A stretch of 64,000 bases of DNA from Alphaproteobacteria bacterium (GCA_965601735.1 OZ271840.1:1080402-1144401); one strand, 5' to 3'; shown: positions 8,493 through 56,730, counted from the first letter of the stretch. The notes: generated from the letters alone by a model not told the origin. Numbers and translations are program-made.

Positions 8493-9727
8493 GCAAGGCG
8501 CCCAAGGAAAGCAAAACGACCAGCGCGAAGACGGCGGATCGCGGCAAGAAGCGCACCAAGAAAGTTGCGCCGAAACCGCAGCCTGTGCCTGAAACCGCGC
8601 CCGCACAGCCTGCGTCTAGCGACGACGGCGGAGGCCGTCAGGCTGCCCTTTTTGCGGGCGCAGCCGCGGCCCTGTTCCTGCTGGTTGCTGTCGTCGGCGC
8701 CCTCGTGGCCACCCGCTTCTATTGGGAGCCCGCCCTGGTTGCCCACGCGCGCCAATTGCTCGGCATGGAGGCCGCGCCGGACCCGTTGGCCGACCTGCGC
8801 GCCCGGGTCGCGGCCCTGGAATCCGTGCCCGAACAGGAAGCCGCCGCGCCGGCCATCGATACCCTGCGCGCGGAGGGAGCCCGCCTCGGCGAGAACATGG
8901 CAGGTCTTGTCGGGCGGGTTAATGATATCGACCAGGCCCTGCGCACCCTGCGTGCCGAGGTAGAAGCCGGAGACGGCGCTGCCGAACGCGATGCCGCCCG
9001 TGCCGATCTTGAGGCTTTGAGGCGTAACTTGTCCCAGCGGCTCGACGAGTTGCGGGCCCAGGGCGACGCGGGGCGGCGGGTCGATGGCGGTCGGCTGGAG
9101 GCGCTGGAGCAGGATAAGGCGGCACTTCTGCAGCGGCTTGAAACCGTGGCGGATCGGCTGGCGGCATTGGAGGACGATGTCGAACGCCAGGCCAGCCGAT
9201 TTACCGAACCAAGCGCCCTTGTGCTTGCAGTTTCTGCCCTACGCCGAGCGGTTGAGAGCGGCGGCGGATTCGCATCTGAACTCGATACTGTGGCGCGGTT
9301 CGCCTCGGAGCGCAGCGACTTGCAGCCCCATGTGTCCGCGTTGCGCACGGCGGCGCCCTCAGGGGTGCCAACCCTGGTCGCGTTGCAGCGGCGGTTCGAA
9401 GACCTGGCGGCCGGGGTCGCGCGGACAGGCCCTGGCGGTAGCGGCTGGGTCGATGAGCTCGTCGACCGGATCGGCGCGATGGTGTCGATCCGCCGCACCG
9501 ATATCGCCACCGGCGACAGCCCCGATGCCATCCTCCTGCGCGCCCAGGCGCACCTGGCAGCCGGCGATCTTGCCGCCGCGGTGGCCGAACTCGGCGCGTT
9601 GCCGGAAACCGCACGCGGTGTGGCGCAGCCCTGGCTCGACGATGCTGCCCGGCGTCTTGCTGCGCTTGAGTCGATTCGTGCCCTGGAGGCCGCCCTGCTG
9701 TCGGGCGGCGCAGCCGCGAGGGGCTGA
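8489..9727 (+). CDS. HemX-annotated coiled-coil membrane protein, probable alphaproteobacterial Mic60/mitofilin homolog
   Basis: 412 aa. Lys-rich N-terminus, one TM helix, a long Ala/Arg/Glu/Leu-rich coiled-coil region, and a C-terminal domain. Sits between hemD and the hemY-like gene, the conserved position of alpha-Mic60 in alphaproteobacteria. Confidence 0.5.
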   Translation: MSKAPKESKTTSAKTADRGKKRTKKVAPKPQPVPETAPAQPASSDDGGGRQAALFAGAAAALFLLVAVVGALVATRFYWEPALVAHARQLLGMEAAPDPLADLRARVAALESVPEQEAAAPAIDTLRAEGARLGENMAGLVGRVNDIDQALRTLRAEVEAGDGAAERDAARADLEALRRNLSQRLDELRAQGDAGRRVDGGRLEALEQDKAALLQRLETVADRLAALEDDVERQASRFTEPSALVLAVSALRRAVESGGGFASELDTVARFASERSDLQPHVSALRTAAPSGVPTLVALQRRFEDLAAGVARTGPGGSGWVDELVDRIGAMVSIRRTDIATGDSPDAILLRAQAHLAAGDLAAAVAELGALPETARGVAQPWLDDAARRLAALESIRALEAALLSGGAAARG

Positions 9728-9729
9728 GC

Positions 9730-11097
9730 GTGCTCCGCGCCATTCGCTATTTCATCCTGCTCGCGGTGGCGGTGGCCGGCGCCGTGTGGCTGGCTGAACG
9801 TCCAGGCAGTGTCACCATCGACTGGCTTGGCTATCGCATCGAGACGCCGGTGGCGGTGCTGGTGGTAGCAGCCGTTGCCCTGGCAGCGGTGTCCGGGCTT
9901 CTGGCCCGACTGCTGGTCGCCTTGCGCCGGGCACCGGGCGACTTTCGGACCTGGCGCGAGGCGCGGCGCCGGCGCCGCGGTTACGCGGCGCTGACCCAGG
10001 GCCTCGTCGCGGTTGCTGCTGGCGATGCCGAATCCGCTGCCCGGTTGGCTGGGCGCGCTGATGGCCTGCTTGGCGAGCCGCCGCTGACCATGCTGCTATC
10101 CGCCCAGGCAGCGCAGCTCAATGGCGATGACCGGGCGGCTGAAACCTATTTCACCGCGATGCTGGACGAGCCTGAGATGGCGTTCCTTGGTCTGCGTGGC
10201 TTGCTGACCCAGGCGATGCGCGAGGGCGACACCGGCAAGGCCCTGGAACTCGCCGAGCGGGCCCGCAAGATGAAGCCGTCGGCAGCCTGGCCGATGATGG
10301 CGATGTTCGATCTACAGGTCGGGCGCGGCGACTGGACCGCGGCTACCATGACAATTGAGGAGGCAACCCGCCGGAAACTCATCGCCCGGGACGCCGGTCG
10401 CCGCCGCGAGGCGGTCCTGCTCTATCGCCGCAGTTTGGAAGTCATCCCCGGCGTGTCTGGTGACGAGGCGTTCCGACTGAGCCGGCGCGCCCATGAGCTG
10501 GCGCCCGACCTGGTGCCGGCGACGGTACGCTATGCGCAGTTGCTACTCGACCGCGGCCGCCGCCGCCGCGTGCCCGACATCCTGCGTGAGGCGTGGCGCC
10601 GGGCGCCGCACCCGGACTTCGTGCCCTTGCATGACGCTTGTTTTAGCGAGGACAGCCCCCTGCAGCGGGTGAAGCGGCTGCGTGGCCTGACCGGCAGCAA
10701 CCCGGATCACGCCGAGAGCCATGTGGCCCTTGGTCAGGCCAACCTTGATGCAGAACTTTGGGGCCCCGCGCGCCAGCATCTTGAGGCGGCCGAACGTACG
10801 ATGCCGACCGCCCGCGTCTACCGTCTGCTGGCTCAGCTTGAGGAGCGTGAGCATGGCGATGGCGCAGCCGTGCGTGATTGGCTCGAACGCGCCGCGGCGG
10901 CGGACCCCGACCCGGTCTGGACCTGCCGAAACTGCGGCGCGGCGACCCGTCACTGGGCGCCGGTTTGCGGTGAGTGCGCCAGCTTCGACAGCTATGCCTG
11001 GCAGCCGCCCCGCCGCGGCGTCCCAGTCGCCGCGCTACCACTTTCGACCCAGCCCGGAACGCTGGCACGACCTGACAGCGCCCCGACCGAGAGCTAA
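9730..11097 (+). CDS. hemY: HemY-like TPR membrane protein with C-terminal zinc ribbon
   Basis: 455 aa. Two N-terminal TM helices, TPR-like repeats, and a C-terminal CRNCG...CGEC motif. Typical partner of hemC/hemD/hemX clusters. Confidence 0.65.
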   Translation: MLRAIRYFILLAVAVAGAVWLAERPGSVTIDWLGYRIETPVAVLVVAAVALAAVSGLLARLLVALRRAPGDFRTWREARRRRRGYAALTQGLVAVAAGDAESAARLAGRADGLLGEPPLTMLLSAQAAQLNGDDRAAETYFTAMLDEPEMAFLGLRGLLTQAMREGDTGKALELAERARKMKPSAAWPMMAMFDLQVGRGDWTAATMTIEEATRRKLIARDAGRRREAVLLYRRSLEVIPGVSGDEAFRLSRRAHELAPDLVPATVRYAQLLLDRGRRRRVPDILREAWRRAPHPDFVPLHDACFSEDSPLQRVKRLRGLTGSNPDHAESHVALGQANLDAELWGPARQHLEAAERTMPTARVYRLLAQLEEREHGDGAAVRDWLERAAAADPDPVWTCRNCGAATRHWAPVCGECASFDSYAWQPPRRGVPVAALPLSTQPGTLARPDSAPTES

Positions 11098-14856: not shown

Positions 14857-16473
14857 CTACTGGCCACCGGCAGTCCAGAACGGTGGCGTTGCCGCGAAGG
14901 TGTGCCAGTCCTCGACCATCCGACGCTCCGACGCGGTGAGCTGGTGGCCGTACCAGCCAATCACCAGACCGGCGGCCCGCTCCAGTTCGGTTGCGGCCTT
15001 GCGGGGCTTGCGTACAGTGAGCGCGCTCAGCAGTTCCTCCGCCACGGCGACATCATTGAGTGCGCCCAGGTCCTCCTGCAGCGCCTCCAGCGCCATCAGG
15101 TAGGCGCGCGACCGGCGCTTCGGATAAAGGCCTCGGAAGAACTCGGTCGCGTAGCGCAGTTTCTTCACCGCGATCCGCAAGCGGTGACGGTCGGGCATCG
15201 ACAGATGCTCAAATCCCTTGCCAAGCCGCATCGCCCGCTTGTGGCGCTTACTGAGCAGCGCGCCGGCAAAGCGTTCCAGCGGCTGGTCAAGCGTGGCTGC
15301 CGCGGTCTCCTCGGCGCGCCAGCCGCGCGTCTCCATCCAGGCGCACAGCTTGAGCAGGAAGGTGGTGTATCGCGGCGCTGTGATGACCGCCCGTGCCTGG
15401 TCGTATCCGTCCGCTACGTTCGCTTCCGCCAGTGCCTTGAGCGCCTGGAGGCCCGCATCATCGCCGCGGTGATCGATGACTGGCGGCAGGGTTGTATTGA
15501 CGAATACGTCCCAGTCTCGCGCATTGCCGAGCCCTTGCGCGGCCCATCGCGCATCGTCGTTGAAGGCGCCGAAGTCGCCCGGCGTGATCACATCGCGGAA
15601 CAGCGCCAGTACCGAGCGGAAACGTCGCAGGCCAACGCGCATCTGGTGCACGCCTTCCGGGTCCCGCCCATCGAGCACGGCGGCCTCGTTGGCGGTCCAG
15701 TGGTCGAGGCAACTGCGCAGGGTCTGCTCCAGCGCTTGCTCCACGGTCGCGCTACGCCGCAGGGCCGGCTTGTCCGACTTGCGGCAGGGCGGAGGCGTGC
15801 CAGTCGCCAGCAGGTAGCCGCGGGCCGATTTGCTCAACGTCTCGACCCGCAGCGGGCTGACCGCGTGCAGATCCAGTGCCAGGTCGAAGAGCGCGCCCGG
15901 CCCACCACGCAGCAGCTCCAGTTCGACCTCGCATATCGGCGACTTGCCACGGGTGGTACGGATTTCGCCTTCGTCGAAACAGATTTCGACTACCCCGTCG
16001 GGATCCTGACTGTTCAGCACCTGTTTCTTGCGGCGCACGGTGCCGGTGAACACCCGTTTCAGGCTGTCCGCATCAATGCCGTCGAGCCAAGCCCGGGCAT
16101 GCGGATCAACGAACGCCGTGAGGTCGAGGGCGAATTTCGGCACCTCGACCTGCCATTCGCCACGGCGCTGTAACCCGCCTGCCGGCCCATCGCCGGACTT
16201 CAGGGTCTGCACATAACGCGGGCCTTCCTGGCGCACGCGCAGTGCCAGCCCGCGGGCGCGCAGGTCGAAGTTGGCGGTGTCGAAATAGGCATAGCGCAGG
16301 CGCTGCTCGACCCCATGCCCAACGGCACGACTGAGCAACGGCTCAGAGGTTGCCAGCGCCGCCAGCGCCTTCCTGTCCGCAGCGAGCTTGAGTTCAACTT
16401 CGAAGTTGTCTGGCGGCGTAAACTCGGGGGCTGCTTCCACCCCGGCGCTGCCGTCCGCAGGTCTGGTCCGCAA
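14857..16473 (-). CDS. CYTH (triphosphatase-like) plus CHAD domain protein
   Basis: 538 aa. N-terminal FEVELKLAA / EVELEL CYTH-type EXEXK strands, and a long alpha-helical CHAD C-terminal half with conserved His/Arg. Confidence 0.7.
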   Translation of the reverse strand: MRTRPADGSAGVEAAPEFTPPDNFEVELKLAADRKALAALATSEPLLSRAVGHGVEQRLRYAYFDTANFDLRARGLALRVRQEGPRYVQTLKSGDGPAGGLQRRGEWQVEVPKFALDLTAFVDPHARAWLDGIDADSLKRVFTGTVRRKKQVLNSQDPDGVVEICFDEGEIRTTRGKSPICEVELELLRGGPGALFDLALDLHAVSPLRVETLSKSARGYLLATGTPPPCRKSDKPALRRSATVEQALEQTLRSCLDHWTANEAAVLDGRDPEGVHQMRVGLRRFRSVLALFRDVITPGDFGAFNDDARWAAQGLGNARDWDVFVNTTLPPVIDHRGDDAGLQALKALAEANVADGYDQARAVITAPRYTTFLLKLCAWMETRGWRAEETAAATLDQPLERFAGALLSKRHKRAMRLGKGFEHLSMPDRHRLRIAVKKLRYATEFFRGLYPKRRSRAYLMALEALQEDLGALNDVAVAEELLSALTVRKPRKAATELERAAGLVIGWYGHQLTASERRMVEDWHTFAATPPFWTAGGQ

Positions 16474-16607
16474 GGTCAGCCCGTCTCCATCGTCACCCAG
16501 GCGCGCAACGCCAACAGCCTCTACCTCTTTTCGACAGGTTGAGTGCCTAGGCGTGTCGTCTGTCGACGACTATGGCATTCGATTGAGGGTAGAGCGAGTC
16601 CGGGATT

Positions 16608-17543
16608 CTATCCCGTGCGCACCCGGATGCAGCCTTGCGAACCGTCGCCGCGCTCGCGCTTCGCCTCGTACATCAACTCGTCGGCGGCCGCCATCAGCGA
16701 TGCTGCGTTGTCGCCATCCTCGGGGAAAAACACCACCCCGATCGAGGCGGTGACACGCAAGTCCTTGCCGCTGTAGGAAACCGGTTCGGCGATATCGTCG
16801 GCAAGCTTCGCGACCACCTTCATCGCACTGTCTCGCTGGTCGAAATTCTCCAGCAGGCATACGAACTCATCGCCGCCCACCCGGCCTACGGAGTCGGACC
16901 GCCGCACGCCGTGGGACAGGCGTTCGCCGATGGTGCGCAGCATACTATCGCCGGCATCATGGCCATGGGTGTCGTTGATCGGCTTGAAGCCGTTGAGGTC
17001 GATGAAGGCCAGGCAGAACGGCGCCTTGGAGCGGCGCGAACGCGCAATCGCCTGATCGAACAGGTTCATGAACAGCCGGCGGCTGGGCAGGCCGGTGAGG
17101 TCGTCGTAGAGCGCCGCCATCACCAGATGGTCCTGCAAGCGCTTCCGCTCCACCGCGTATCGCAGGGAGCGCTCCAATAGCGACGGGCCGATCTCGTCCT
17201 TTACCAGATAGCCAAAGGCGCCACGGCGCATAGCCTGCAGGTCGAGTTCGCGGCTGACCGATCCGGTCAGCAGGATCACCGGCACATCGATACCGCGCTC
17301 GACGAGCGACGCCATCACGTCGAAACCGGTCTCGGCGCCAAGGTCATGATCGAGCAGGCAGGCATCGAAGCCGTCCCTCTCAAACAGGGCGGTGGCTTCC
17401 TCGGGCGTCGCGGCGGTCTCGACCTCGAACGGCGCACCATCAATGCTATCGAGCATATCGCAGACCAGGCGCCGGTCCTCGCTGTCGTCGTCAAGCAGCA
17501 GAATCCGCAAGGTGCCGTCTACGGGCGGTACCTGCAACATCAT
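16608..17543 (-). CDS. Response regulator with GGDEF diguanylate cyclase output (PleD-like)
   Basis: REC domain (LLLDDD..., D in LLDHDL), then a GGDEF domain with GGDEF motif RVGGDEF and the upstream RxxD-like region. Confidence 0.8.
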   Translation of the reverse strand: MMLQVPPVDGTLRILLLDDDSEDRRLVCDMLDSIDGAPFEVETAATPEEATALFERDGFDACLLDHDLGAETGFDVMASLVERGIDVPVILLTGSVSRELDLQAMRRGAFGYLVKDEIGPSLLERSLRYAVERKRLQDHLVMAALYDDLTGLPSRRLFMNLFDQAIARSRRSKAPFCLAFIDLNGFKPINDTHGHDAGDSMLRTIGERLSHGVRRSDSVGRVGGDEFVCLLENFDQRDSAMKVVAKLADDIAEPVSYSGKDLRVTASIGVVFFPEDGDNAASLMAAADELMYEAKRERGDGSQGCIRVRTG

Positions 17544-18010
17544 GACGGGGGGAGCTCCGCGGTTTCCAGCCAGAAGGCGCGTAGCCGCGCCATGGCGTCG
17601 ACCAAGTCGCGATAACCGGAAGGCTTCGCAATATAGGAATTAGCGCCGAGGCCATAGCAGGTCCGGACATCTTCCTCAGAGTTCGAGGTGGAGACGACCA
17701 CTACCGGAATCTCGCGCAGGGTCGGGTCGGCTTTCATCGCGCTCAATGCATCGCGGCCATTCATCACCGGCATGTTGAGGTCCAACAGAACGATGTCGGG
17801 CCGAACCGCTGCCTCGTTGCCCGCATAGGGCCCTTGATTCTTGAGGTAATTCAATAGCTCACGGCCATCGCGGACGAATTGGATCGCGATCCGATCGTGG
17901 CTTTCATGGAGCGCATCGGCAATCAGCCGCCGATCATCCTCATCGTCGTCCGCTACCAAGAGGTAACGGACCGGCGGTTCATCCGCGGCCGTCTGCAATT
18001 CCCTCGTCAT
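17540..18010 (-). CDS. Single-domain response regulator (CheY-like)
   Basis: 156 aa receiver (LLVADDDEDD..., LLDLNMP, conserved K). ATGA-type overlaps with both neighbours. Confidence 0.75.
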   Translation of the reverse strand: MTRELQTAADEPPVRYLLVADDDEDDRRLIADALHESHDRIAIQFVRDGRELLNYLKNQGPYAGNEAAVRPDIVLLDLNMPVMNGRDALSAMKADPTLREIPVVVVSTSNSEEDVRTCYGLGANSYIAKPSGYRDLVDAMARLRAFWLETAELPPS

Positions 18011-20433
18011 GTCGCCTGTTCCACGCCCTCTTGGTCCCCGTCGCCCATGCCGTCGCCGTGCGAAACTGGAAGCTCAAACGCAAAAACCGTGCCGACGCCC
18101 GGCTCGGACTCTACTGAGATCGTGCCGCCGTGATGCTCAACGACGCGCTGCACGATGGCAAGCCCGATCCCGGTGCCCTCATACTCCTCACGGCCATGCA
18201 GACGCTGGAAGGGGCGGAACACCCGCTCCGCCATCGCGGGTTCGAATCCGATGCCATTATCGGCCACCGTGACCCGGCAATAGGCCTCTCCATCGCGGGT
18301 GACCGGTGCCAGGCTAATGGTGATCCGCGGCGGCGTGTCCGGGCGGCGGAATTTCAGAGCATTGCCGATCAGGTTCAGGAACAGCCGATGGATCAGCCCG
18401 GGCTCCGCATCGACGGTCCCGCAGCCGTCAACGGTGATCTCGCCGCCACTCTCCTGCAGCCGGTACTCCAGATCGGCCGCCACCCGGTTGACGCTCTCTC
18501 CAAGGTCGACAGGGCGGAAAGCAGTGTCTCCTTTGCCGATACGCGCATAGTTCAACAGACCGGTGATCAGGTCCTGCATCCTGGTCGCGGCGGCGGCCAT
18601 GCGGGTCACGTAATACTGGCCGTCCTCGTCCAAGGCATCGGCGTAACGCGTCTCTAGGCGTTCGCCGAAGGCGACAATCTTGCGTAGCGGCTCTTTTAGG
18701 TCGTGGGACGCGACATGGGCGAACTCTTCCAGATCCCGATTGGAGCGTTCGAGCTCTGCCGATTGCTGGGCCAGCAAATCCGCCGCCTCTTCCGCCCGGC
18801 GGCGGGCCTCCGACAGCTCGGCCTCGCGCTCCTTCAGGGCACTGATATCGGTGCGAACCGCGACGATGCCTCCCTCGGTGGTGCGCCGTTCGGTGCCCAG
18901 CACCCAGCGGCCATCCGGCAGCTTCCACTCGAACCGACGGCCCGCCCCGGTGGCGAACTCCTGCAGCCGGGTGCGGACATACGCGTCAATATCTCGATCC
19001 GCGATGTTCGGATTGATCTGCAGGGCCGTGCGGATGACGACCTCGAAGCTCTGCCCTGGCTTCAGCAGATGGGCCACATGCTTGTTGAAGTCCCGATACT
19101 TGTCGTTGCACAGGATCAGCCGGCCGCCCCGGTCCCATAGCACGAAGCCCTCGTCGATATTCTCGATCGCGTCGGTCAGGCGCTGCTCGGCGCGCTTCAG
19201 GGCGGTGATGTCGGAGCGGATACCAACGATGCCACCATCGCGGGTCCGCCATTCGCGGATCAGGATGGTGCGGCCATCGTTCCAGTGCTGGATGATCGGC
19301 TCACCGGTCGGGTTGAGGTGTGCCTCCAGACGCTGGCGCAGCCAGGACTCCGGGTCGGTCCGTTGCAGCGGATCGTCGACCACCCGGTTCTCTAGTCCGA
19401 GCCGGATCAGGTCCTCGAATGTCTTGCCCGCCAGCTCCGAGCGCGGCGGCAAATAGGGATACAATTCCCGGTACCGTTCGTTGCACAGCACCAGCCGGTC
19501 TTCCTTGTCGTAGAGGATGAAGGCGTCGCTGATGCCGTCAATGGAATCGACGAGTTGCTGCTGGGCGACACGGGCGGCGTTGGCCGCCGCCTCCCGGCGC
19601 GCCTCCGCTGCGACCTGCTCGGTCAGGTCGCGGCCGATTCCGCGATAGCCGATGAAGGTGCCGTCTGCGTCGAACAACGCCCGGCCGCTGTTGGTCATGG
19701 TCAGCGGGCGGCCGTCGGCATGCCAGTTGGTGTAGATGAAATCGTCGAAGTCCTCGCGCGCATCCAGCGCGGCGAAGAAGGCTTCCCACCGGGGCTGCTC
19801 CTCGATGAGGGTACCCTTGTACATGTCGCGGCGGGTCTTGCCGACCAGCCGGTCGACCGGCTTGCCTGTGATCTCGGTGTAGCGCGGCGACAGGTATGTG
19901 TAGCGCAGGTCGGCATCCATCTCCCAAAGCCAATCCGAGCCGAGCTCCGCGAAGTCCTGGAACCGGGACTGGCTGTCATGCAGGGCGAGTTCACTGCGCT
20001 TGCGCGCGGATATGTCGGTTACCGCGACCGCGATCGCGGGCTCACCTTCCCAGACCGTCGCATGGACGTTGTAGGCAGCCCAGAACAGGCTGCCGTCGCG
20101 GTGCTGGGCGGCGAGTTCGTAGCGTTCAGGGGCCGCCTGGCCCGCCCGGCGCTGGTTGGCATAGCCGCGCACCCGAGCGCGCTCGTGCGGCGCCGCACAA
20201 GTTTCCGTCACGTCCAAGCCGAGCAGCTCATCCGTCCGATCGAATCCGAAAAGCGCCGCTGCTGCTCTGTTGGCGTAGCGTATCTTGTCGTCGCGGGTGA
20301 TCAGCACCCCGACCCGCAAATCATCGACCAGGGTGTGGAAGGATGCGTCGATTGCCCCGTCCCGGAGTATGGAGTCCGTCACTGGACGCCTCCCGCCCCC
20401 ACCCTCACGGACCCGCAGCGCGGCGCGCGGCAA
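18007..20433 (-). CDS. Multi-PAS sensor histidine kinase
   Basis: 808 aa. Several PAS/PAC repeats, HisKA H-box (AHVASHDLKEPLRK), HATPase_c N/G boxes (NALKF, GTGIGLAIV). No receiver domain. Confidence 0.8.
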   Translation of the reverse strand: MPRAALRVREGGGGRRPVTDSILRDGAIDASFHTLVDDLRVGVLITRDDKIRYANRAAAALFGFDRTDELLGLDVTETCAAPHERARVRGYANQRRAGQAAPERYELAAQHRDGSLFWAAYNVHATVWEGEPAIAVAVTDISARKRSELALHDSQSRFQDFAELGSDWLWEMDADLRYTYLSPRYTEITGKPVDRLVGKTRRDMYKGTLIEEQPRWEAFFAALDAREDFDDFIYTNWHADGRPLTMTNSGRALFDADGTFIGYRGIGRDLTEQVAAEARREAAANAARVAQQQLVDSIDGISDAFILYDKEDRLVLCNERYRELYPYLPPRSELAGKTFEDLIRLGLENRVVDDPLQRTDPESWLRQRLEAHLNPTGEPIIQHWNDGRTILIREWRTRDGGIVGIRSDITALKRAEQRLTDAIENIDEGFVLWDRGGRLILCNDKYRDFNKHVAHLLKPGQSFEVVIRTALQINPNIADRDIDAYVRTRLQEFATGAGRRFEWKLPDGRWVLGTERRTTEGGIVAVRTDISALKEREAELSEARRRAEEAADLLAQQSAELERSNRDLEEFAHVASHDLKEPLRKIVAFGERLETRYADALDEDGQYYVTRMAAAATRMQDLITGLLNYARIGKGDTAFRPVDLGESVNRVAADLEYRLQESGGEITVDGCGTVDAEPGLIHRLFLNLIGNALKFRRPDTPPRITISLAPVTRDGEAYCRVTVADNGIGFEPAMAERVFRPFQRLHGREEYEGTGIGLAIVQRVVEHHGGTISVESEPGVGTVFAFELPVSHGDGMGDGDQEGVEQAT

Positions 20434-21631
20434 CCCGGCGCGGCACCAGTGAATTGGTGCCGACGCGCGCCATCACCGGATCGTCGCTCCGGCCGCACAC
20501 GTCGCTCAGCGCGAACAGCACCCGGCCCAGAACCGTTTCGTCCCACATCCAGTCGTCGACCCGCCTGCCTGTGGCGCTGCCCGGCTGGGCGGTGACTGCT
20601 TCCTGGTAGAACGCCTTGAGGTCGTCGGTAGCCAGCTTGAGGCTGCGCGCGAGCGGCTGGTCCGGAATCGGGTTGTCCGGTGTTTCGCCGTCGAGAAAGG
20701 CCGTGACAAACCCCGGCAATGCCGACGGTTGCAGGCCGCTCAGCCCGAAGGTCGTGCGCCCACGCCCGCGCTGGGCGAGTTCATACCATGGTGCCAGGCG
20801 GCCGACCTCTTCCTCCAGGGCCGCGCGATAACCGCCACCCGCATCGATGTCTACCGGCGGCGGCTTGAGGTCGACCGGACAGACCATCGCCTCCGCGGCG
20901 TCGGTGTCAGCTGGCGCTTCCTCTGGGAAATCCTCCAGCACCGGCCCTTCGTTCGCGGACAACAAGGCGAAGGTCGCATCCAGCACCTTGCGCTGGAAAG
21001 AGATGTCGTTCGGTGCGCCGAGCGGGCGGCCCAACTCAAACGGCACCCAAAGGGCGCGCGGCGGGCGCACCTTTTCCGTGTGCAGCCGGATCAGGCTGAT
21101 GCCGGTCGTGGCCAGGCCTTCGCGTTCCAGATAATGCGCAAGCGCGCCCACGGCGCGCGTGCACATCGGTCATATCGGTACCAGCAACACCACATCGACC
21201 GCATCGCGTTTGAGCAGAGCGGCGATCTCCTGCGCCGCCAGCTCCAGCTTCTCCGGTGGGGTGCCGCCATAGAAAGTGTAGTGAAAATCTCCCACTGAAC
21301 CGATGGTGCCCTCGGCCGCCATCTCCTTTAGCCGGTCGAGCGGGAAGGCAATGTTGATGTCCTGCTGGAAGCCAGTTCGGTCGAAGTTGACCGAGGAGTG
21401 GCTCATTACCAGGTCGTCGGGCGCCACATCGCTGGGGATCACCCGATAGTCCGTGGCGCCGCTGTAGAAGGCCGCTTCGCCGCGCCGCTGCAGGGCGGCC
21501 GTGCTGACGATGGCGACTCGCGCATCCGACAGCGCAGGTGGGGCGGCCCACGGCGTGGTGTCGAAAGTCGGGCACTCGGTGTTCTCGAAGTAGGCGCGCT
21601 CAGCCCCCTCGAAATCGCTCAGACGCGCCAT
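20405..21631 (-). CDS. Candidate selenoprotein of the GrdB/PrdB-like reductase family: one reading frame with an in-frame TGA (putative Sec) at 21170-21172
   Basis: Track ORFs 21170..21856 and 20405..21166 are in the same frame, separated only by TGA plus CCG. The junction reads ...VDVVLLVPI-[TGA]-PMCTRAVGALAHYLEREGLATTGISL..., a UxxC motif. A 15-bp stem AUGUGCACGCGCGCC-GUG-GGCGCGCUUGCGCAU starts 3 nt after the UGA. Start trimmed to M76 (MARLSDFEG...) with SD AAAGGAA. Total 408 aa, with U at about residue 154. Confidence 0.5.
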
Positions 21632-21848
21632 GACGGTTCCTTTCGGGCGCTGCGGTGATGCGCCGCACAGCATACACATCGGCACGCCGCCCGGAAGGCC
21701 AAGAACCGGTAACGCTTTCTTAAGCATGGCGGCGGCATGCTCTGCAGCCTGTGTTAGTCCGGCCACGGAATCGGCCGGGCAATGTTGGAGGATTTCTTCG
21801 GGGGCCGGTGTGGCATGAGGCCAAGCCCGGACCAGGAGTGGTGAGCCG

Positions 21849-23291
21849 ATGAGCATCGATCAGTATTTGCCGCGCATCTCGCGCCATCATCACCAGGGCC
21901 GGCTCTACGGCCGCGAGCCCGAATTGCTGGCCGTACCGGTGCGCGAGGCCGCCAAGGAAGGCCTCGCCCAGTTGGACGCCGGCGACATCTATGCCGCGGA
22001 GTTCCATTTCCGGCGTGCGCTGACCGGCAACGGCGAGGATGCCGAGGCTCTGTGCGGCCTGGCGCTATCGCTCTATCAGCAGGCGCGCTGGGGCGAGGCG
22101 GAGGGCCTGTTGCGCCAGGCGCTCGGCCTGCGGCCCGAATGGCGCAAGGCACAGGCCGCGTTGGCGGAAGTGCTGTTACAGCTTGGGCGTTATGGCGAGG
22201 CCATCGGCGAGTTTCGCGACCTGGTTCGCGCCTTGCCGGAGAACCCCTATCTGCGCAAACGCTTCAACCGGGTACGGCTGCGCTACGAGCAGATCGAGAC
22301 GGCCCGGCGATCAATCCGCATCGACGACAACCCCAACCCGCTATGGGGTGAGACCCGGCGCGGCCAGGCGATCAGCCTGGCGCCGAACCCAGTTATCCGA
22401 CCCGACAGCAACATCTTCACCATCGGCAGCTGCTTTGCCGTGGAGGTGCGCCACGAACTGGCGCGGCGCGGCTTTGCGATGTATCCGCGCTACGACACCC
22501 TCAAGATCGATCCGGCGCGCCAGAAGATCAACGCCCTGCCGGACAAGCTCAACCTCAACTACTACGACACCTTCACCATCCGTCAGGAGATCGAGCACGC
22601 GGTGGAGGGCCGCCGTTACGGCCTGGAAGATTTCTGGCGAATCAGCGGAAGACCGATCAACAGCCTGTTCCGCCAGGCCACCGTGTTTCAGGATCCCTAT
22701 CGCAAGAACGTCTATGGCCGTGATGAGGCGGCGATCCTCAGCGCCAGCGCTCAGCTCTCGGACGTTATGGCCGACGGTGTCGCGTCATCGGATGTCTTCG
22801 TCATCACGCTCGGACTGACAGAAGCCTGGCAGAACCTAGCCAACGGCCTGTATGTTGCCGGCCCGCCAGGTGGCAAGACCGGCGGCGCAGGCCTGTGCCG
22901 GCTGCGGCTCAGCAGCTTTGCCGACAACTACGCCAACCTGAAGCGGACCCTCGACATGCTGTTCGCGGCCAACGCCCAGCGCGACGTGCTGCTGACGGTG
23001 TCGCCGGTGGCGTTGCACCGCACCTTCTCTGATCAGGACGTGATCGTCGCGAACATGGAGAGCAAGTCGATCCTGCGCGCCGTCGCTGGGCAGCTTGCCC
23101 GGGAGTATCCGCGCGCCCACTACATGCCGACTTACGAACTGTTCGCCCGCCACGACCTGTTTCACGAGGACGGGCGGCACGCCTCGCGCGACGGTGTGGC
23201 GGTGGTGTTCGATACCCTGCTTAGCGCCTTCATGGAGCCGAGCGTCGAGCGGGCCGACCTGCGCGAGATGATCCGAGAGCACGCCGCCTGA
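21849..23291 (+). CDS. TPR-repeat plus GSCFA-domain protein
   Basis: 480 aa. N-terminal TPR-like repeats, then the GSCFA family motif IFTIGSCFAVEV and downstream conserved blocks. Confidence 0.65.
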   Translation: MSIDQYLPRISRHHHQGRLYGREPELLAVPVREAAKEGLAQLDAGDIYAAEFHFRRALTGNGEDAEALCGLALSLYQQARWGEAEGLLRQALGLRPEWRKAQAALAEVLLQLGRYGEAIGEFRDLVRALPENPYLRKRFNRVRLRYEQIETARRSIRIDDNPNPLWGETRRGQAISLAPNPVIRPDSNIFTIGSCFAVEVRHELARRGFAMYPRYDTLKIDPARQKINALPDKLNLNYYDTFTIRQEIEHAVEGRRYGLEDFWRISGRPINSLFRQATVFQDPYRKNVYGRDEAAILSASAQLSDVMADGVASSDVFVITLGLTEAWQNLANGLYVAGPPGGKTGGAGLCRLRLSSFADNYANLKRTLDMLFAANAQRDVLLTVSPVALHRTFSDQDVIVANMESKSILRAVAGQLAREYPRAHYMPTYELFARHDLFHEDGRHASRDGVAVVFDTLLSAFMEPSVERADLREMIREHAA

Positions 23292-27030: not shown

Positions 27031-28725
27031 ATGTCCACCGTTTCCAGCGCGAACCCGGATCAGCAGGTACACGCTGCGCAGCAGCAGCGTGACCGGTTCC
27101 TGGCGTTTGCGTTCGCCGCGGCCGATGTGCTGATCGAGACCAACGACAAAGGCCACATCCAGTATTGCGCCGGTGCTACCGAGAACCTGTTCGGTGAGCC
27201 GGTTGAGACCCTGGTTGGGATGACGCTGGCCACCTCGGTCGCCGAGGAAGACAAGGTGATGCTCGACGCGGCGATGGCGCGGCTGCGCGCTACCGGTCGG
27301 ATCGAGCGCCTGAGCATTGCCATCAATCATAAGACCGGCGGTCAGACGGTGACCGAACTCAACGGCATTATGCTGCCGCAGCGTCCCGGCATTTGCAGCT
27401 TGGTACTGCGGTTCGCCCGCTCCGCCGGCGGCGCGCAGCATCGCCACGTTCCGGCCGCAGGTGCCCTGACCAAGGACAGCTTCATCGAACTGGCCAAAGG
27501 CCGGCTCGCCGAGGGGGCGGCGCGGGGCGAGGATTACCGCCTCACCATGCTCGATCTGGAGAGTGAGGAATTCTACGAGCGACTCGGCACCGAGGGGGCC
27601 GAGCAGTTCGCCGACGACATCGAGGGACAGCTGCGGGCCTGGTCGGTAGCCGGCGCCTCGGTCGGCCGGCTCGCCACCGGCCCGACGGGCGAGGTCACGC
27701 GCTACGGTGTCATCCACGACGGCACCGTAGCTGCCGAGCAGCTCGAGGAACGCATCAACACCCTTGCCGCCGAGGCCGATCCGTCGGGCGAGGGGCTGGC
27801 GGTACAGAGCAACAGCGTCAGCTTCGAGGGCGGTGAGCTGAGTCCGGAGGAGATGGTCCAGGCGGTGGCTTACACCATCAACAAGTTCGCCGCGGAGGGT
27901 GGCTCCGATTCCGGCTTCGGCACCTTGGCCGACGGCTACAAGGCGATGCTCGACGACACCATCGCGCGGGTGCGAAAGTTCCGCACACTGACCGAGTCGG
28001 ATCAGTTCAGCTTCGTGTTCCAGCCGGTGGTCTCGCTACGCGAGTGGAAGGTGCACCACTTCGAGGTGCTGTCGCGCTTCGAGAAAGACGACTCCGGCGC
28101 TTCGCCTTACGACACCCTGGTGTTCGCCGAGGATATCGGCCTGGTCAGCGAGTTCGACCTAGCGGTACTCCGCAAGGCCATCGGTCTGTTGCAACAGGAC
28201 GACTTTCCCGCCGATACCTCTATTGCGGTGAACCTGTCGGGCCGCTCGCTGCTGAACCAGCGGTTCGTCTCCGAGTTGCTGTCCCTGCTGGCGCAGAATC
28301 GCGGCCTCAACAAGCTGCTGATGTTTGAGATCACCGAGTCCTTCGAGATCAAGGACCTGTCCAGTGCCAACAAGCTGCTGCAGGAGATCCGCAAGCAGGG
28401 CTTCACCGTTTGCCTCGACGATTTCGGCGCCGGGGCGGCGGCGTTCCAGTATCTGCGCAACCTGCAGATCGACTTCGTGAAGATCGACGGCAGCTACTTG
28501 CACGACGCCTTCGCCTCGCCCTTCGGCAAGTCATTCCTGCGCGCCATCGCCAACCTGTGCGCCGACCTCAAGCTCAGGACCATCGGCGAGATGGTCGAGG
28601 ACCAGCTGGCGCTCGACCTGCTCACCCAGATCGGTGTCGATATGGGTCAAGGCTATTTCCTCGGCGCGCCCCAGCCTACCGCGGACCCGGTGACCCTGCC
28701 GGCCCGCGCCAAGACCCGGCGCTGA
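27031..28725 (+). CDS. EAL-domain c-di-GMP phosphodiesterase with N-terminal sensory region
   Basis: Track ORF trimmed to M43. EAL signature residues present: EITES, DDFGAG, KIDGSY, and the E...Q loop. Predicted catalytically competent. Confidence 0.7.
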   Translation: MSTVSSANPDQQVHAAQQQRDRFLAFAFAAADVLIETNDKGHIQYCAGATENLFGEPVETLVGMTLATSVAEEDKVMLDAAMARLRATGRIERLSIAINHKTGGQTVTELNGIMLPQRPGICSLVLRFARSAGGAQHRHVPAAGALTKDSFIELAKGRLAEGAARGEDYRLTMLDLESEEFYERLGTEGAEQFADDIEGQLRAWSVAGASVGRLATGPTGEVTRYGVIHDGTVAAEQLEERINTLAAEADPSGEGLAVQSNSVSFEGGELSPEEMVQAVAYTINKFAAEGGSDSGFGTLADGYKAMLDDTIARVRKFRTLTESDQFSFVFQPVVSLREWKVHHFEVLSRFEKDDSGASPYDTLVFAEDIGLVSEFDLAVLRKAIGLLQQDDFPADTSIAVNLSGRSLLNQRFVSELLSLLAQNRGLNKLLMFEITESFEIKDLSSANKLLQEIRKQGFTVCLDDFGAGAAAFQYLRNLQIDFVKIDGSYLHDAFASPFGKSFLRAIANLCADLKLRTIGEMVEDQLALDLLTQIGVDMGQGYFLGAPQPTADPVTLPARAKTRR

Positions 28726-28774
28726 CCCCGGCGATCGCCGTGGCGCGTCCCGCCGCGTGGAGGCGGCAGACGGC

Positions 28775-30034
28775 ATGGCGTTTCTCGACCGATTCCAGGG
28801 CTTCCGGCGCGCCTTCAGCCACCGCAACTATCGCTATTTCGCATCGGGCAGTGCGCTGTCGCAGATCGGCACCTGGATGCAACGCGTCGGGGTTGGCTGG
28901 CTCGCCTGGGAGCTGACCGGTTCGGGCGCTTGGCTCGGCGCCATTGCTTTCGCCGACATGTTCCCCACCGTCATCCTAGGGCCGGTAGCGGGCGCCATCG
29001 CGGATCGGCTCGACCGGCTGCTGCTATTACGCCTGACCCAGGCCCTCAATGCGCTGCAGGCGCTGGCGCTCACGGTCCTGGTCGCTTCGGGAACGGCGAC
29101 CATCGAATTGCTGGTTGGGCTGATGCTGCTGCGCGGGGTGATCCTCGCGATCAACCAGCCGGCGCGCCAGGCCCTGGTGCCCAGTCTGGTTGGACGCGAC
29201 GACATTGGACCGGCCATCGCCATCAATTCACTGATCTTCAACTGCGCCCGGTTCATCGGCCCCGCCATTGCCGGTTTCGTTATCGCCGCAGGCGGACTGG
29301 TCTGGGTCTTTGCGATTAATGCCGCGAGCTTCCTGCTGTTCGTGGTGATGCTCGCCTTCATCCGGTTGCCGCCGCACCGTCGTGCCGCGTCGGACAGCGG
29401 CCTGATCGCCGAGGCGGTCGAGGGCTATGGCTATGCGGCGCGTCACCCCGGCATCGGGCCTCTGATCCCGGTCCGCTTGCTCGCCGCCTTCGGTGCGCGG
29501 CCTGTGGTGGAAATGTTCCCTGGCATTGCCGACAAGGTGTTCGGCCAGGGGGCCGACGGCCTTGGTCTCATGCTGTCCGCGATGGGCGTCGGTGCCATCG
29601 CCGCCGGTCTCTACCTTGGCCAGCGCAGTGGTATCGCCGGTCTGACCCGGGTGCTGATCGCCAACCTATGCCTGATCGCGCTGGCGCTGCTCGCCTTCGG
29701 GGCGGTGGACGCCTTCCATCTTGCCCTGATCATCGTGCTGGTGCTGGGTTTCGCCCAGGTGCTCAACGGCGCCGGCACCCAGACCCTGGTGCAGTCGGCG
29801 GTGGACCCCGCAATGCGTGGCCGGGTGCTCGGCCTGTTCGGCCTGATCAACCGGGGCGGCCCTGCGCTGGGCGCTTTGGCGATGGGGGCGCTGGCCGACC
29901 GCTACGGTTTCGCCCTGCCGCTGTCGCTGGGCGCTATACTGTGTCTGCTTGCCTGCCTCTTCGCCGCGCTGCGCCGGCGGACGCTGGAACGCGCGCTGGA
30001 ACGCGCGCCTGCCGGCGGCCGCGGCAACCGGTAA
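28775..30034 (+). CDS. MFS transporter (EntS/MFS_3-like), paralog 1
   Basis: 12-TM MFS. N-terminal FRRAFSHRNYRYFASGSALSQIGTWMQRVGVGWLAWELTGS typical of the enterobactin-exporter-like MFS_3 family. Confidence 0.7.
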   Translation: MAFLDRFQGFRRAFSHRNYRYFASGSALSQIGTWMQRVGVGWLAWELTGSGAWLGAIAFADMFPTVILGPVAGAIADRLDRLLLLRLTQALNALQALALTVLVASGTATIELLVGLMLLRGVILAINQPARQALVPSLVGRDDIGPAIAINSLIFNCARFIGPAIAGFVIAAGGLVWVFAINAASFLLFVVMLAFIRLPPHRRAASDSGLIAEAVEGYGYAARHPGIGPLIPVRLLAAFGARPVVEMFPGIADKVFGQGADGLGLMLSAMGVGAIAAGLYLGQRSGIAGLTRVLIANLCLIALALLAFGAVDAFHLALIIVLVLGFAQVLNGAGTQTLVQSAVDPAMRGRVLGLFGLINRGGPALGALAMGALADRYGFALPLSLGAILCLLACLFAALRRRTLERALERAPAGGRGNR

Positions 30035-30086
30035 GCGCGGCGCGCCAGCCACTCCAGTGGGGACCCGGCGCCGAGCCGGGGCCGTC

Positions 30087-31340
30087 ATGAGCCTCTACGA
30101 CCGTTTCTCGGCTTTTTCCCGGGCCTTTCGACACCGCAATTACCGGCTCTATGCCGGCGGCAACGCCCTGTCGACCATCGGCCTGTGGATGCAGCGGGTC
30201 GGCGTCGGCTGGCTCGCCTGGGAGCTGACCGGCTCGGCGACCTGGCTCGGGCTGATCGCGTTCGCCGACATGTTCCCCACCGTTATCCTCAGCCCGCTCA
30301 CCGGGACGGTGACGGACCGCATCAACCGGCTGCGGCTGCTGCGGGTCACCCAGGCGCTCGTTGCTTTGCAGGCTTTGGCGCTGGCGGCGCTGATCTACCT
30401 CGATCACATCACCATCGTCTGGCTGCTGGCTCTGACCGTGGTGCGCGGCATCATTCTCGCGTTCAACCAGCCGGCGCGGCTGTCTCTGATTTCAGCCCTT
30501 GTCGGCACCGAGGATGTGGCGCCGGCGATTGCCATCAACGCGATGATCTTCAATGCGGCGCGCTTTGTCGGCCCGGCCATCGCCGGTGTGCTTCTGGTCG
30601 GCGGCGACACCTCGGCGCTGTTCGCGGTCAACGCCCTATGCTTCCTGTCCTTCTCGATAATGGCCGGCTTTGTGCAGCTGAATGAGCCGGACCGGCTGGC
30701 GCCCAAGGCCGGCCTGTTGCAGCAGACCCTGGAGGGCTACCGCTACGCCGCTGGTCATCAAGGCATCGGGCCACTGCTGCTGATGCTCTCGCTCACGGCG
30801 TTCGGCGCGCGGTCCTTTATCGAGCTGATGCCCGGGATCGCCGACGTGGTATTCGCGCGCGGGGCCGACGGGCTGGCCGCCCTGCTCGCGGTGATGGGCG
30901 TGGGCGCCATTGTCGGCGGGGCCTGGCTCGCCCAGCGCCCGACGCTGGATGGCCTGACCCGTGTGGTCATCACCAACCTGCTGATGCTGGCCGCCACCCT
31001 TTGTGCCTTTGCCGCGACCGGCATCTTCTGGGTCGGGCTAGTGGCGGTGTTCGTGCTCGGATTCGTGATCACCGTGAACGGTGCGGGGATCCAGACCTTG
31101 ATCCAGGCAGCGGTCGACGCGGAGGTGCGCGGGCGGGTGCTCGGCCTCTACGGCCTGATTGTGCGTGGTGCGCCGTCGATCGGCGCATTGCTGATGGGTG
31201 CCTTCGCCGAGCGCGTCGGCTTCGCCCTGCCCATGGTCTGCGGCGCGGCGATTTGCGTGCTGGCCTGGGGCCTCGCGACCCTGCGCCGCGGCCGCATGAC
31301 GCGGGCGCTGGAGCCCCGCGCCGCTGCGGCGCGGGACTGA
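30087..31340 (+). CDS. MFS transporter (EntS/MFS_3-like), paralog 2
   Basis: Trimmed to M47 (MSLYDRFSAFSRAFRHRNYRLYAGG...). Collinear and clearly paralogous to the upstream MFS gene. Confidence 0.7.
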   Translation: MSLYDRFSAFSRAFRHRNYRLYAGGNALSTIGLWMQRVGVGWLAWELTGSATWLGLIAFADMFPTVILSPLTGTVTDRINRLRLLRVTQALVALQALALAALIYLDHITIVWLLALTVVRGIILAFNQPARLSLISALVGTEDVAPAIAINAMIFNAARFVGPAIAGVLLVGGDTSALFAVNALCFLSFSIMAGFVQLNEPDRLAPKAGLLQQTLEGYRYAAGHQGIGPLLLMLSLTAFGARSFIELMPGIADVVFARGADGLAALLAVMGVGAIVGGAWLAQRPTLDGLTRVVITNLLMLAATLCAFAATGIFWVGLVAVFVLGFVITVNGAGIQTLIQAAVDAEVRGRVLGLYGLIVRGAPSIGALLMGAFAERVGFALPMVCGAAICVLAWGLATLRRGRMTRALEPRAAAARD

Positions 31341-31348
31341 CTCGCCGC

Positions 31349-32890
31349 TCAGCCGCGGCCGAAGCCGCCGCCGCCGGCGGTTTCCATCAACACGCTGTCG
31401 CCCTTGTGCAGCAGCTGGTGCTCAGCCACGTCGACCGGCTTGCCGTTGACCAGCACCTTGCCAGCGCGGCCATTGCCGCCGCCCATCAGGCCGCGCGGCG
31501 CGATGCGGATGCGGGTCATGATGAAGGAGCACAGGCCGGGCTCATCGCCCATGAAGTCGAAGCCGATGGAGATGCCCTGGCCACCCTTGTTCTTGCCGCG
31601 GCCGTTGCTCCGCGCGTTGAAGCCGCGGTGGCGGATCTTGATCGGCGCCAGCGACTCCATGACCTCGATGGGAGTATTGCCCAGATTTGACGGAAAGCTG
31701 ATCGCCGACTGACCGTCGCGCGCTGCATTGGCGCCCTGGCCGGCGTTGATGAAGTTCACCACCGCATAGCGCTGGCCCTTGTGGGCGCCGGTCATGGTGA
31801 AGGAGGAATTGGCGGATCCTTCCGCCAGCACACGGTCCGGCAGTACCGGCGCCAGGGCACCCATGATAGCCGGTACCATCATGTGCCCGATCATGCCGCG
31901 CGCACCGCTGGCGGCGGGGTAGCGCGGGTTGAAGATGGTGCCTTCCGGCGCCCAGGTCGAGACCGGCAGGAAGCTGCCCTCGTTGTTCGGGATGTCCGGT
32001 GACAGCAGCGCCTTCACCGCGTAGGCGGAGTAGGCGAATGTGTAGATCGGCACCACGTTGACCGAGCGGGGCAGCTGGGGCGAGGAGCCTGAGTAGTCGA
32101 TCGCCAGGTTGGTGCCCTTGATATTCACCTTGCAGTCGATGGTGATCGGATCCTCAAAGCCGTCATGCTGGATGACATAGCGGTAGTCGCCGTCAGGGAT
32201 GGCGCGGATCGCCTGGCGCATCGCCTTCTCGGAGCGGCCGCGCACTTCCTCGCCGAGGCGCGGCAGATCGAGGCCGGTCTCGTCGAGCAGCGCGCACAGC
32301 CTCTCGTCGAGCATCTGGCACGCCGCCACCTCGCCCCACACGTCGCCCATGGTCTGTGCCGGGACGCGCACGTTGCGTTCGATCATCTCGACCACCGCCT
32401 GGTCCGGCTTGCCCGCATGCATCAGCTTGAGGCGCGGGATCTGCAGCCCCTCCTCGAAGATCTCGCGGATGCCGGAATTGCGGATGCGCCCGCCAATGTC
32501 CGGCATGTGGCTGGTTACTGCCGCAAAGGCGACCGGCTTGCCCTTGTAGAAGATCGGCCGCGCGACGGTGATGTCATGCACATGGCCGGTGCCCATCCAG
32601 GGGTCGTTGGTAATCAGCACGTCGCCGTCCTTCAGCGTCTCCAGCGGGTAGACGTCCAGAAAGTGCTTCACCGTACGTGGCAGGGTGCCGATGAAAGACG
32701 GAATGCTCATGCTCGACTGCGCCAGCGACCGGCCCTGGGGATCGGTCAGAACCACGGCGAAATCGTTGGCCTCGCGCACCAGGGTCGAGAAGGAGGTGCG
32801 CACGAAGGTGGCGGATGCCTCGTCTACCATGCTCACGAGCCGGCCCCAGAGGACCTCGAGGGTGACGGGATCGAAGGTGGTCTTTGCCAT
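31349..32890 (-). CDS. Hydantoinase B / 5-oxoprolinase family protein (HyuB-like), copy 1
   Basis: 513 aa. Hydantoinase_B family: conserved N-terminus DPVTLEVLWGRLVSMVDEASATFVRTSFS and C-terminal GGGGFG. Confidence 0.75.
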   Translation of the reverse strand: MAKTTFDPVTLEVLWGRLVSMVDEASATFVRTSFSTLVREANDFAVVLTDPQGRSLAQSSMSIPSFIGTLPRTVKHFLDVYPLETLKDGDVLITNDPWMGTGHVHDITVARPIFYKGKPVAFAAVTSHMPDIGGRIRNSGIREIFEEGLQIPRLKLMHAGKPDQAVVEMIERNVRVPAQTMGDVWGEVAACQMLDERLCALLDETGLDLPRLGEEVRGRSEKAMRQAIRAIPDGDYRYVIQHDGFEDPITIDCKVNIKGTNLAIDYSGSSPQLPRSVNVVPIYTFAYSAYAVKALLSPDIPNNEGSFLPVSTWAPEGTIFNPRYPAASGARGMIGHMMVPAIMGALAPVLPDRVLAEGSANSSFTMTGAHKGQRYAVVNFINAGQGANAARDGQSAISFPSNLGNTPIEVMESLAPIKIRHRGFNARSNGRGKNKGGQGISIGFDFMGDEPGLCSFIMTRIRIAPRGLMGGGNGRAGKVLVNGKPVDVAEHQLLHKGDSVLMETAGGGGFGRG

Positions 32891-32928
32891 TTTTCGGTCT
32901 CTATCGTTTGCGGTTCGTTATCGGTTGT

Positions 32929-36614: not shown

Positions 36615-36821
36615 GAGTTCCTCGTCGGTGTGGCGGGCGCCGGACGCGGCCGGCGCGAGAATCCTTTGCTGGTGTGTCCTGCCCGGAGAACGGGTGCCGT
36701 GTCGGTGGTCTGTGTCGGCGGCTCCGAATGTCTCAGGAAGGCCTGCGCCGGGGTGGCGCGCGGCGGTCAGCATACGTAAAGCATGTCCTGAGTCACCAAA
36801 AACCACCCGGCCCAAAAAGCA

Positions 36822-36872
36822 AAGGGCCCGGCTTTTCAGCCGGGCCCCGAAGGCGGATCACAATGCTGCGGA
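36822..36872 (-). terminator. Rho-independent terminator downstream of the BI-1/YccA gene
   Basis: The minus-strand transcript reads GGGCCCGGCU-GAAA-AGCCGGGCCC followed by UUUGCUUUUU. Confidence 0.6.
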
Positions 36873-49176: not shown

Positions 49177-49188
49177 CCGGCCGCCCGC

Positions 49189-51874: not shown

Positions 51875-51952
51875 AGGCTGCTGTCTCGGCGGGGCAAATT
51901 AGGTTGCGCTGCATCATTGTGGTACGCACCGTCGCAGCGCACAACGCAGGCG

Positions 51953-54780: not shown

Positions 54781-56730
<1,950 letters not shown>

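Follow-up and report, generated by a model that had tools for sequence, protein, structure and literature searches.

A gene with an in-frame UGA codon encodes a probable two-domain selenoprotein of the GRDB superfamily in an alphaproteobacterium

Identification of the gene

The stretch of DNA analysed here, called the window below, comprises 64,000 nucleotides (nt) from an Alphaproteobacteria bacterium (GCA_965601735.1, OZ271840.1:1080402-1144401). The region 20405..21631 on its minus strand is, with a probability that we put at about 0.92, a single gene in which a UGA codon encodes selenocysteine (Sec) and which contains a functional selenocysteine insertion sequence (SECIS) element; the main uncertainty lies in the Sec machinery of the source genome. 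This gene is to be annotated as one selenoprotein of 408 amino acids (aa) and not as two hypothetical proteins. The same splitting error affects thousands of database entries of the family, deposited as fragments of 153 aa and ~250 aa. The features of the gene are the following (all on the minus strand):

21638..21642, minus: Shine-Dalgarno sequence AAGGA, located 6 nt ahead of the ATG and seen in the sequence itself
20405..21631, minus: selenoprotein coding sequence (CDS), 408 codons including the predicted Sec154; ATG 21631..21629, terminator TGA 20407..20405
21170..21172, minus: in-frame UGA, predicted Sec codon 154; the TGA column is conserved and holds Cys in the Cys forms
21161..21163, minus: codon TGC of Cys157, partner in the putative U-P-M-C redox motif, invariant in 88/88 Sec and Cys forms
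21133..21167, minus: full SECIS hairpin of this genome, obtained by folding (8 bp, C.U 1x1 mismatch, 7 bp, GUG loop)
21142..21158, minus: conserved 17-nt core stem-loop GCGCGCC-GUG-GGCGCGC, beginning 11 nt after the UGA
21149..21151, minus: apical loop, opening with a conserved G-U
20960..21592, minus: PrdB/GrdB-like (Pfam GRDB) alpha/beta domain, residues ~14-224, with U154 and C157
20408..20959, minus: family-specific C-terminal domain, residues ~225-408, mostly helical

Reading frame and start codon

A preliminary description of the window had noticed two adjacent open reading frames (ORFs), 21170..21856 and 20405..21166 (minus strand). They do share one frame, and only the TGA (21172..21170) and a CCG codon (21169..21167) stand between them. 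The read-through junction is, as had been quoted, ...DAVDVVLLVPI-U-PMCTRAVGALAHYLEREGLATTGISL..., and the motif around the UGA codon reads ...LLVPI-U-PMC-TRAVGAL.... It had also been proposed that the true start of the long upstream ORF is its residue M76, which places the UGA at codon 154. We retain this start (ATG 21631) because the N-terminal pieces of the orthologs are nearly all exactly 153 aa long (among the best 120 of 1,765 database matches), because the GC content at third codon positions (GC3) shifts from 0.63 ahead of ATG 21631 to 0.80 in the upstream half of the CDS and 0.81 in the downstream half, and because the ATG is preceded by the AAGGA motif. Inspection of the sequence revealed no Shine-Dalgarno motif upstream of ATG 21166, in agreement with the description. 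As it had also foreseen, standard gene callers split the gene: the 253-aa C-terminal piece of this very genome (P0001, 100% identical) is present in the databases as an unnamed protein.

The selection acting on each half was estimated by comparison with L052, an Acetobacterales metagenome-assembled genome (MAG) that contains the closest ortholog (75% identity) among the 80 best loci described below. The nonsynonymous and synonymous substitution rates (dN/dS) are 0.156/0.775 (~0.20) for the N-terminal half and 0.225/0.886 (~0.25) for the C-terminal half. Both halves are under purifying selection, and from the value of the C-terminal half it follows that the part located after the UGA is maintained as a protein.

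Conservation of the UGA codon and its replacement by cysteine

The read-through sequence was used as query against 5.8 billion proteins and recovered 3,129 matches, which are divided into two classes. The first class contains pieces of ~250 aa that correspond only to the C-terminal 60% of the query, and the second contains full-length proteins of ~405-415 aa that carry PF07355. Residue U154 is aligned with an invariant Cys of the full-length homologs, included in the motif PVCPxC[TS]R (all full-length sequences of the protein alignment A1). The expectation that the U would fall on a conserved Cys column was therefore borne out.

Orthologs were then sought with one genome per species. At least 574 genomes contain a relative, and the best 80 loci were analysed at the DNA level. 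Their hosts belong to the Rhodospirillaceae and other Alphaproteobacteria, to the Beta- and Gammaproteobacteria, and further to the Desulfobacterota, Dehalococcoidia/Chloroflexota, Sumerlaeota, Clostridiales and Microthrix. The Sec column is occupied by TGA in 80/80 orthologous loci (81/81 genes with the gene of the window) and never by TAA or TAG. In the full-length Cys forms examined at the DNA level, the same column is occupied by TGC or TGT (7/7), the motif being UPxC in the Sec forms versus CPxC in the Cys forms. In the closest relatives (75-92% identity), the split falls at this position too. A Met equivalent to that of ATG 21166 is missing from many orthologs, and the C-terminal pieces called in their genomes begin at differing residues. 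The ortholog comparison, which the preliminary description had suggested as a check, contains no genuine two-gene arrangement. We conclude that the region is one reading frame and that its UGA codon forms a Sec/Cys pair with the codon of the Cys forms.

Two orthologs come from assemblies with unexpected labels, one named Nitrosopumilus sp. (L055) and one Streptomycetaceae (L039), in both cases on contigs of 1.6-2.6 kb. The archaeal and actinobacterial assignments of these MAGs are probably due to binning contamination and do not indicate the true hosts.

These data bear on two other explanations. According to the first, there are two separate genes, one encoding a GRDB-domain protein of 153 aa (or 228 aa) that ends at the TGA and one encoding a protein of 253 aa starting at ATG 21166. 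The gene callers do emit two proteins, and the databases contain thousands of entries of 153 aa and ~250 aa, including the 253-aa piece of this genome. We nevertheless consider this arrangement very unlikely: the homologs of ~405-415 aa with a Cys at the junction are single polypeptides, the match to the PrdB hidden Markov model (HMM) spans the junction (residues 33-224), the supposed stop codon is TGA in every one of the 81 genes, and the second ORF lacks both a Shine-Dalgarno motif and, in many orthologs, an equivalent Met. The second explanation is a pseudogene or a sequencing error, in which a Cys codon (TGC/TGT) or a Trp codon (TGG) was mutated to TGA or misread as such, a single-base change being sufficient in each case. 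This is highly improbable given that 80 independent genomes and MAGs, originating from many studies, all have the identical TGA and that the closest relatives are interrupted at the same position; moreover, the downstream half has a coding-type GC3 and a dN/dS of ~0.25, and the SECIS of the window is intact and unusually stable.

A conserved SECIS element inside the coding sequence

The hairpin described previously was recovered by folding, with its stems of 8 and 7 bp, its C.U mismatch and its GUG loop, which begins 18 nt after the UGA. Starting at the UGA, a segment of 45 nt folds with -25.9 kcal/mol (z = -3.6), and none of 200 dinucleotide shuffles folds as well; for the 86-nt context the z value is only -1.7. 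The family alignment refines this element, since conservation within the family is limited to the loop and the upper 7-bp stem, the long lower stem being largely specific to this genome. The family consensus of the core, taken from alignment A2, is G-CGCGCC-GUN-GGCG(C/G)G-C, and its distance from the UGA is exactly 11 nt. The stem-loop, like the TGA, is present in 80/80 orthologous loci, which is well beyond chance. The SECIS lies inside the coding sequence, where it encodes T-R-A-V-G-A-L.

Codon conservation was measured on an alignment of 80 genes and 205 columns, from loci with a GC content of 43-71%. The lowest codon entropies (4 of 205 columns) are those of codons +4, +5, +6 and +8, which correspond to both arms of the stem, and the codons are frozen as ACG (73/78), CGC (63/68), GCC (77/80) and GGC (73/74). 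The third base of the Val codon +7, situated in the loop, is unconstrained (G in 42 sequences, U in 20, C in 8 and A in 8). The seven upper pairs are paired in 89.6% of the cells of the alignment, versus 30-56% after a shift of the partner by 1-3 nt. Double-sided changes are found in 15 cells versus 2.4 +/- 1.2 in shuffled alignments, and 0/500 shuffles reached 15. At the pair 19:33, for example, 67 sequences have CG, 7 have UA, 2 have AU and 1 is unpaired. Some of the compensatory changes modify the amino acid (R to C, H, S or T; G or A to A or V) and still keep the pair. The Cys forms serve as a negative control: after the CxxC motif they have TRGAA, TRDGG or SRTVCG, encoded by varied codons, with no GCC-GUN-GGC hairpin. 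The frozen codons, the covariation and this control show that the stem-loop is under selection at the RNA level. Two separate genes would leave both the frozen codons and the covarying stem without explanation.

The minimal SECIS of Escherichia coli fdhF consists of a 17-nt upper stem-loop located 11 nt from the UGA, with G23 and U24 in the loop (PMC8659212). The family element resembles it by its 11-nt spacer, its 17-nt stem-loop, its loop opening with G-U and its position inside the ORF directly 3' of the UGA. It differs by the absence of a bulged U in the 5' arm and by its loop, which is of 3 nt according to the energy model; recruitment of SelB is, for the present element, a prediction. 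Most members of the family have a G.G mismatch at the pair 20:32, whereas the hairpin of the window is a perfect 7-bp stem. The 17-nt signature CGCGCC-GUN-GGCGSG, at 11 nt after the UGA, provides a simple tool to find and annotate the members of the family.

Short hairpins can also be drawn ~12-33 nt after the Cys codon in three Cys forms (L083, L085 and L087), such as CCGCA-CUGUC-UGCGG in L085 or a structure of -14.3 kcal/mol in L083. They are possibly fossil SECIS elements left after a Sec-to-Cys conversion, or chance structures in GC-rich sequences.

Protein architecture

PF07355 matches residues 14-151 with 35.2 bits (gathering score 22), and the ortholog pieces carry precomputed PF07355 matches. 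The NCBIfam model of PrdB (TIGR04483) matches residues 33-224, that is to say across the UGA, with an E value of 1.6e-27 and 96.5 bits (positions 26-218 of the 238 of the model). Judged by these profile matches, the selenoprotein belongs to the GRDB superfamily.

No Pfam or NCBIfam model matched the C-terminal domain. Its residue C251 (codon 20879..20881) is conserved in 87/88 sequences, and W282, R292, Y342 and P350 are conserved in at least 97% of the same 88 sequences. AlphaFold was applied to P0006, the full-length Cys homolog nearest to the protein of the window (47% identity). In the resulting model, which is confident (pLDDT 89.3, pTM 0.88), the CxxC motif lies in a Rossmann-like alpha/beta domain of ~230 residues, after which the chain forms an all-helical domain (helices 259-397). 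Comparison of the model with the folds of the PDB gave no match covering the C-terminal domain, and the sequence search of the PDB detected no relatives.

Comparison with the PrdB and GrdB proteins

The family is labelled 'D-proline reductase (dithiol) PrdB' by JGI and 'selenoprotein B family protein' by NCBI, and the preliminary description had proposed a GrdB/PrdB-like protein. The membership in the superfamily stands; the assignment to PrdB or GrdB proper does not. The score of 96.5 bits is far below the equivalog cutoff of PrdB (300 bits, TIGR04483). The scores are equally below the GrdB-type cutoffs, namely 38.4 versus 602.2 bits for TIGR01917 and 44.3 versus 65.45 bits for TIGR01918 (the PrdB/GrdB subfamily model), and below those of GrdF (47.1 versus 800) and GrdH (50 versus 775).

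The family shares with PrdB of Clostridium sticklandii and C. difficile a homologous alpha/beta domain and a Sec predicted at an equivalent position in a UxxC motif (U154-P-M-C157). PrdB is however a single-domain protein of ~240 aa, while the family protein has 408 aa with an additional helical C-terminal domain of ~180 residues; prdA, prdC and the prd operon context are lacking and the hosts are not Stickland fermenters. The PF07355 superfamily and the Sec-xx-Cys spacing are also shared with GrdB, GrdF and GrdH. In the GrdB-type proteins (~435 aa) the homologous region is C-terminal (model positions ~205-417), whereas it is N-terminal here. The motif of GrdB is UxxCxxC (PMC13188914), unlike the sequence U-P-M-C-T-R-A of the present protein, in which position +6 is Ala in 80/80 Sec forms. 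No grdA, grdE or grdC/D gene recurs in the neighbourhood of the gene.

The neighbourhoods of the 80 loci were compared by clustering the ORFs within 7 kb, and nothing besides the gene itself is common to more than 12 loci; neither is there any PrdA, GrdE or GrdA-type gene among the ORFs of the window that were scanned. There are thus no conserved partner genes across the loci. The neighbourhood clusters 2, 3 and 5 were discarded as antisense or off-frame shadows of the selenoprotein gene.

The proposal that the protein is a bona fide PrdB subunit, or the protein B of a glycine/betaine reductase, working in a Stickland-type complex can rely on the two database labels, on PrdB being the best NCBIfam match and on the naming used in the selenoproteome literature. 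We give it only a small chance, since the scores, the ~180-aa domain that is missing from the 238-position PrdB model, the replacement of the third Cys of GrdB by Ala, the lack of any recurring PrdA, GrdE, GrdA or GrdC/D-like neighbour in the 80 loci and the hosts, most of which are aerobic or marine Alphaproteobacteria or members of similar groups, all speak against it. With its failed cutoffs, its length, its lack of a third Cys and its lack of a partner, the protein should therefore not be called a D-proline reductase, and the family name PrdB is probably wrong. A very abundant environmental selenoprotein family is in this way filed under an enzyme whose defining features it does not display.

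Relation to the marine PrdB family

A family named 'Proline reductase (PrdB)', with a UxxC motif and 42 genes, ranked third in abundance among the selenoprotein families of the Sargasso Sea in the survey of Zhang, Fomenko and Gladyshev of 2005 (PMC1088965). The Global Ocean Sampling (GOS) survey of Zhang and Gladyshev (2008) counts 235 PrdB selenoproteins and 110 Cys homologs under pfam07355 (PMC2398784). Anaeromyxobacter and Geobacter are likewise credited with 'Proline reductase' selenoproteins (PMC1794560), and two of our best 80 orthologs come from Geobacteraceae (L054 and L073). In reviews of 2022 and 2026, the only entry is still 'D-proline reductase, TIGR04483'.

The family of the window shares with the marine 'PrdB' the UxxC motif of Sec and pfam07355, and the marine family is abundant in oxic marine metagenomes; many of our orthologs originate from MAGs of marine Rhodospirillaceae and other Alphaproteobacteria, one cluster having a Tara source. 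Both are very probably one and the same family. The family has consequently been known as a selenoprotein family since 2005-2008, and the gene call made for the window is correct but not new. The passages searched in the marine surveys, which treat the family as PrdB, do not mention the C-terminal domain, the missing PrdA partner or the conserved 17-nt SECIS, and nowhere in the literature passages searched is it stated that the family is distinct from PrdB in architecture and context.

Selenocysteine machinery

Genes of the Sec machinery are located beside the gene in several relatives. Among the 15 tRNAs detected in the flanks of L001-L060, four are tRNA-Sec. Two Alphaproteobacteria MAGs have selD on the strand of the selenoprotein gene, within a selA-selB-tRNA-Sec-selD cluster and with its end 15-35 nt ahead of that gene: in L021 the genes selA, selB, tRNA-Sec and selD lie directly upstream, selD (8921-9985) ending 15 nt before the gene (10001 onward), and in L018 the order is selB, tRNA-Sec, selD and then the gene, with selD at 2496-3563 and the gene from 3596 onward on the same strand. 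L046, L033 and L049 have sel genes within 10 kb of the gene. Overall, a tblastn match to SelA, SelB or SelD was obtained in the flanks of 7/80 loci, those of L008 and L022 being weak, restricted to SelD and of ~35% identity. The adjacency of selD means either that the gene is a passenger selenoprotein of the Sec trait or that it has a role in selenium handling.

The selD gene of L046 (6517-7599, minus strand) itself contains an in-frame stop codon in the N-terminal motif (...FAKSAG-stop-AGKLGP...), where SelD has its catalytic Cys/Sec. The gene probably encodes a Sec-containing SelD, thus a second selenoprotein at this locus.

Several points weigh against the interpretation of the region as a Sec-encoding gene of this superfamily. 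No selA, selB, selD or tRNA-Sec was found within the 64-kb window. The hairpin was matched by no Rfam family, either in the window at the gathering thresholds or in the local region at E <= 10, where the only matches were chance ones to microRNA (miRNA) or small RNA (sRNA) models. The literature searched contains no experimental selenium incorporation for any member of the subfamily. Finally, the family falls short of the equivalog thresholds of PrdB and GrdB, the partner subunits are lacking and the catalytic mechanism is drawn purely by analogy.

The absence of visible sel genes in the window would also fit a read-through that is not specific to Sec, be it through reassignment of UGA (code 4 or 25) or through near-cognate insertion of Trp or Cys; read-through that needs no Sec machinery is known in some bacteria. 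We find this hardly credible. The gene terminates with a TGA (20407..20405) and further genes of the window end in TGA as well, in a genome of 67% GC; UGA is therefore a normal stop codon here. Such a decoding would have no need of a conserved SelB-type stem-loop at the canonical distance, and relatives carry selA, selB, selC and selD beside the gene. Insertion of Sec in the source organism is a deduction that we draw from the gene, its SECIS and its relatives.

Proposed mechanism and function

As a single Sec-encoding gene, the region 20405..21631 would be expressed as follows. UGA codon 154 would be read as Sec during translation, the stem-loop that starts 11 nt downstream recruiting the SelB.GTP.Sec-tRNA(Sec) complex. 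The N-terminal alpha/beta GRDB domain would carry a selenol/thiol redox pair formed by U154-P-M-C157. By analogy with PrdB and GrdB, a reductive cleavage or a reduction may proceed with Sec154 as the nucleophile; a selenenyl-sulfide might then form with Cys157 and be re-reduced by a thiol reductant. The clostridial enzymes have a pyruvoyl subunit as partner; the protein is presumed to act without one, and for this reason its substrate is probably not D-proline. Both the catalytic cycle and the physiological role are inferred.

A wider proposal, to which we would give even odds, is that the marine 'PrdB' is not a proline reductase but a stand-alone selenol/thiol reductase of two domains, with no pyruvoyl partner and with a C-terminal domain that has no solved structural relative and a near-invariant Cys251. 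It is probably co-transcribed with selD in some genomes, and for this reason it may act in selenium handling.

Genomic context

The genes located downstream of the selenoprotein gene in the window encode signalling proteins:

18007..20433, minus: ORF of a histidine kinase with multiple PAS domains, directly downstream, overlapping the stop of the selenoprotein gene by 29 nt
17540-18010, minus: REC protein
16608-17639, minus: REC-GGDEF protein
14857-16569, minus: CYTH-CHAD protein

A GTG at 20382 preceded by a purine-rich leader is a plausible start for the histidine kinase. Co-transcription of this signalling cluster (14857-20433, minus strand) with the selenoprotein gene is possible. The upstream neighbour, which is divergent, encodes a TPR-GSCFA protein. 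The gene context of the window shows no conservation among the 80 related loci.

Among the loci of the Sec forms, the commonest genes immediately downstream are those of dehydrogenases and encode an SDR protein (8 loci), a 2-hydroxyacid dehydrogenase (7 loci) and a quinone-oxidoreductase-like protein (5 loci). The Cys forms L081, L082 and L086 are located beside oligopeptide-type ABC transporters (SBP_bac_5, BPD_transp_1 and ABC_tran) and an Exo_endo_phos protein, and L084, L085 and L087 beside a VTT/DedA protein, with a TauD-family dioxygenase also present in L084 and L087. These neighbours give weak hints of a small-molecule substrate and of a link to NAD(P)H.

A scan of the window for other in-frame TGA junctions flagged only the positions 44507 and 47507. 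The former is an ordinary gene boundary, with a FIST-domain gene on one side and a LigT-family gene on the other.

Two other regions of the window were noted for their gene content. The region 31349-36857 (minus strand) together with 28694-31340 (plus strand) contains two Hydantoinase_B paralogs and a Hydantoinase_A (oxoprolinase-type), adjoining two tandem MFS_3 transporters. Finally, the region 48256-54884 (minus strand) contains an unusually long array of seven consecutive tandem paralogs of EamA-family (DMT) transporters, of ~300-380 aa each.

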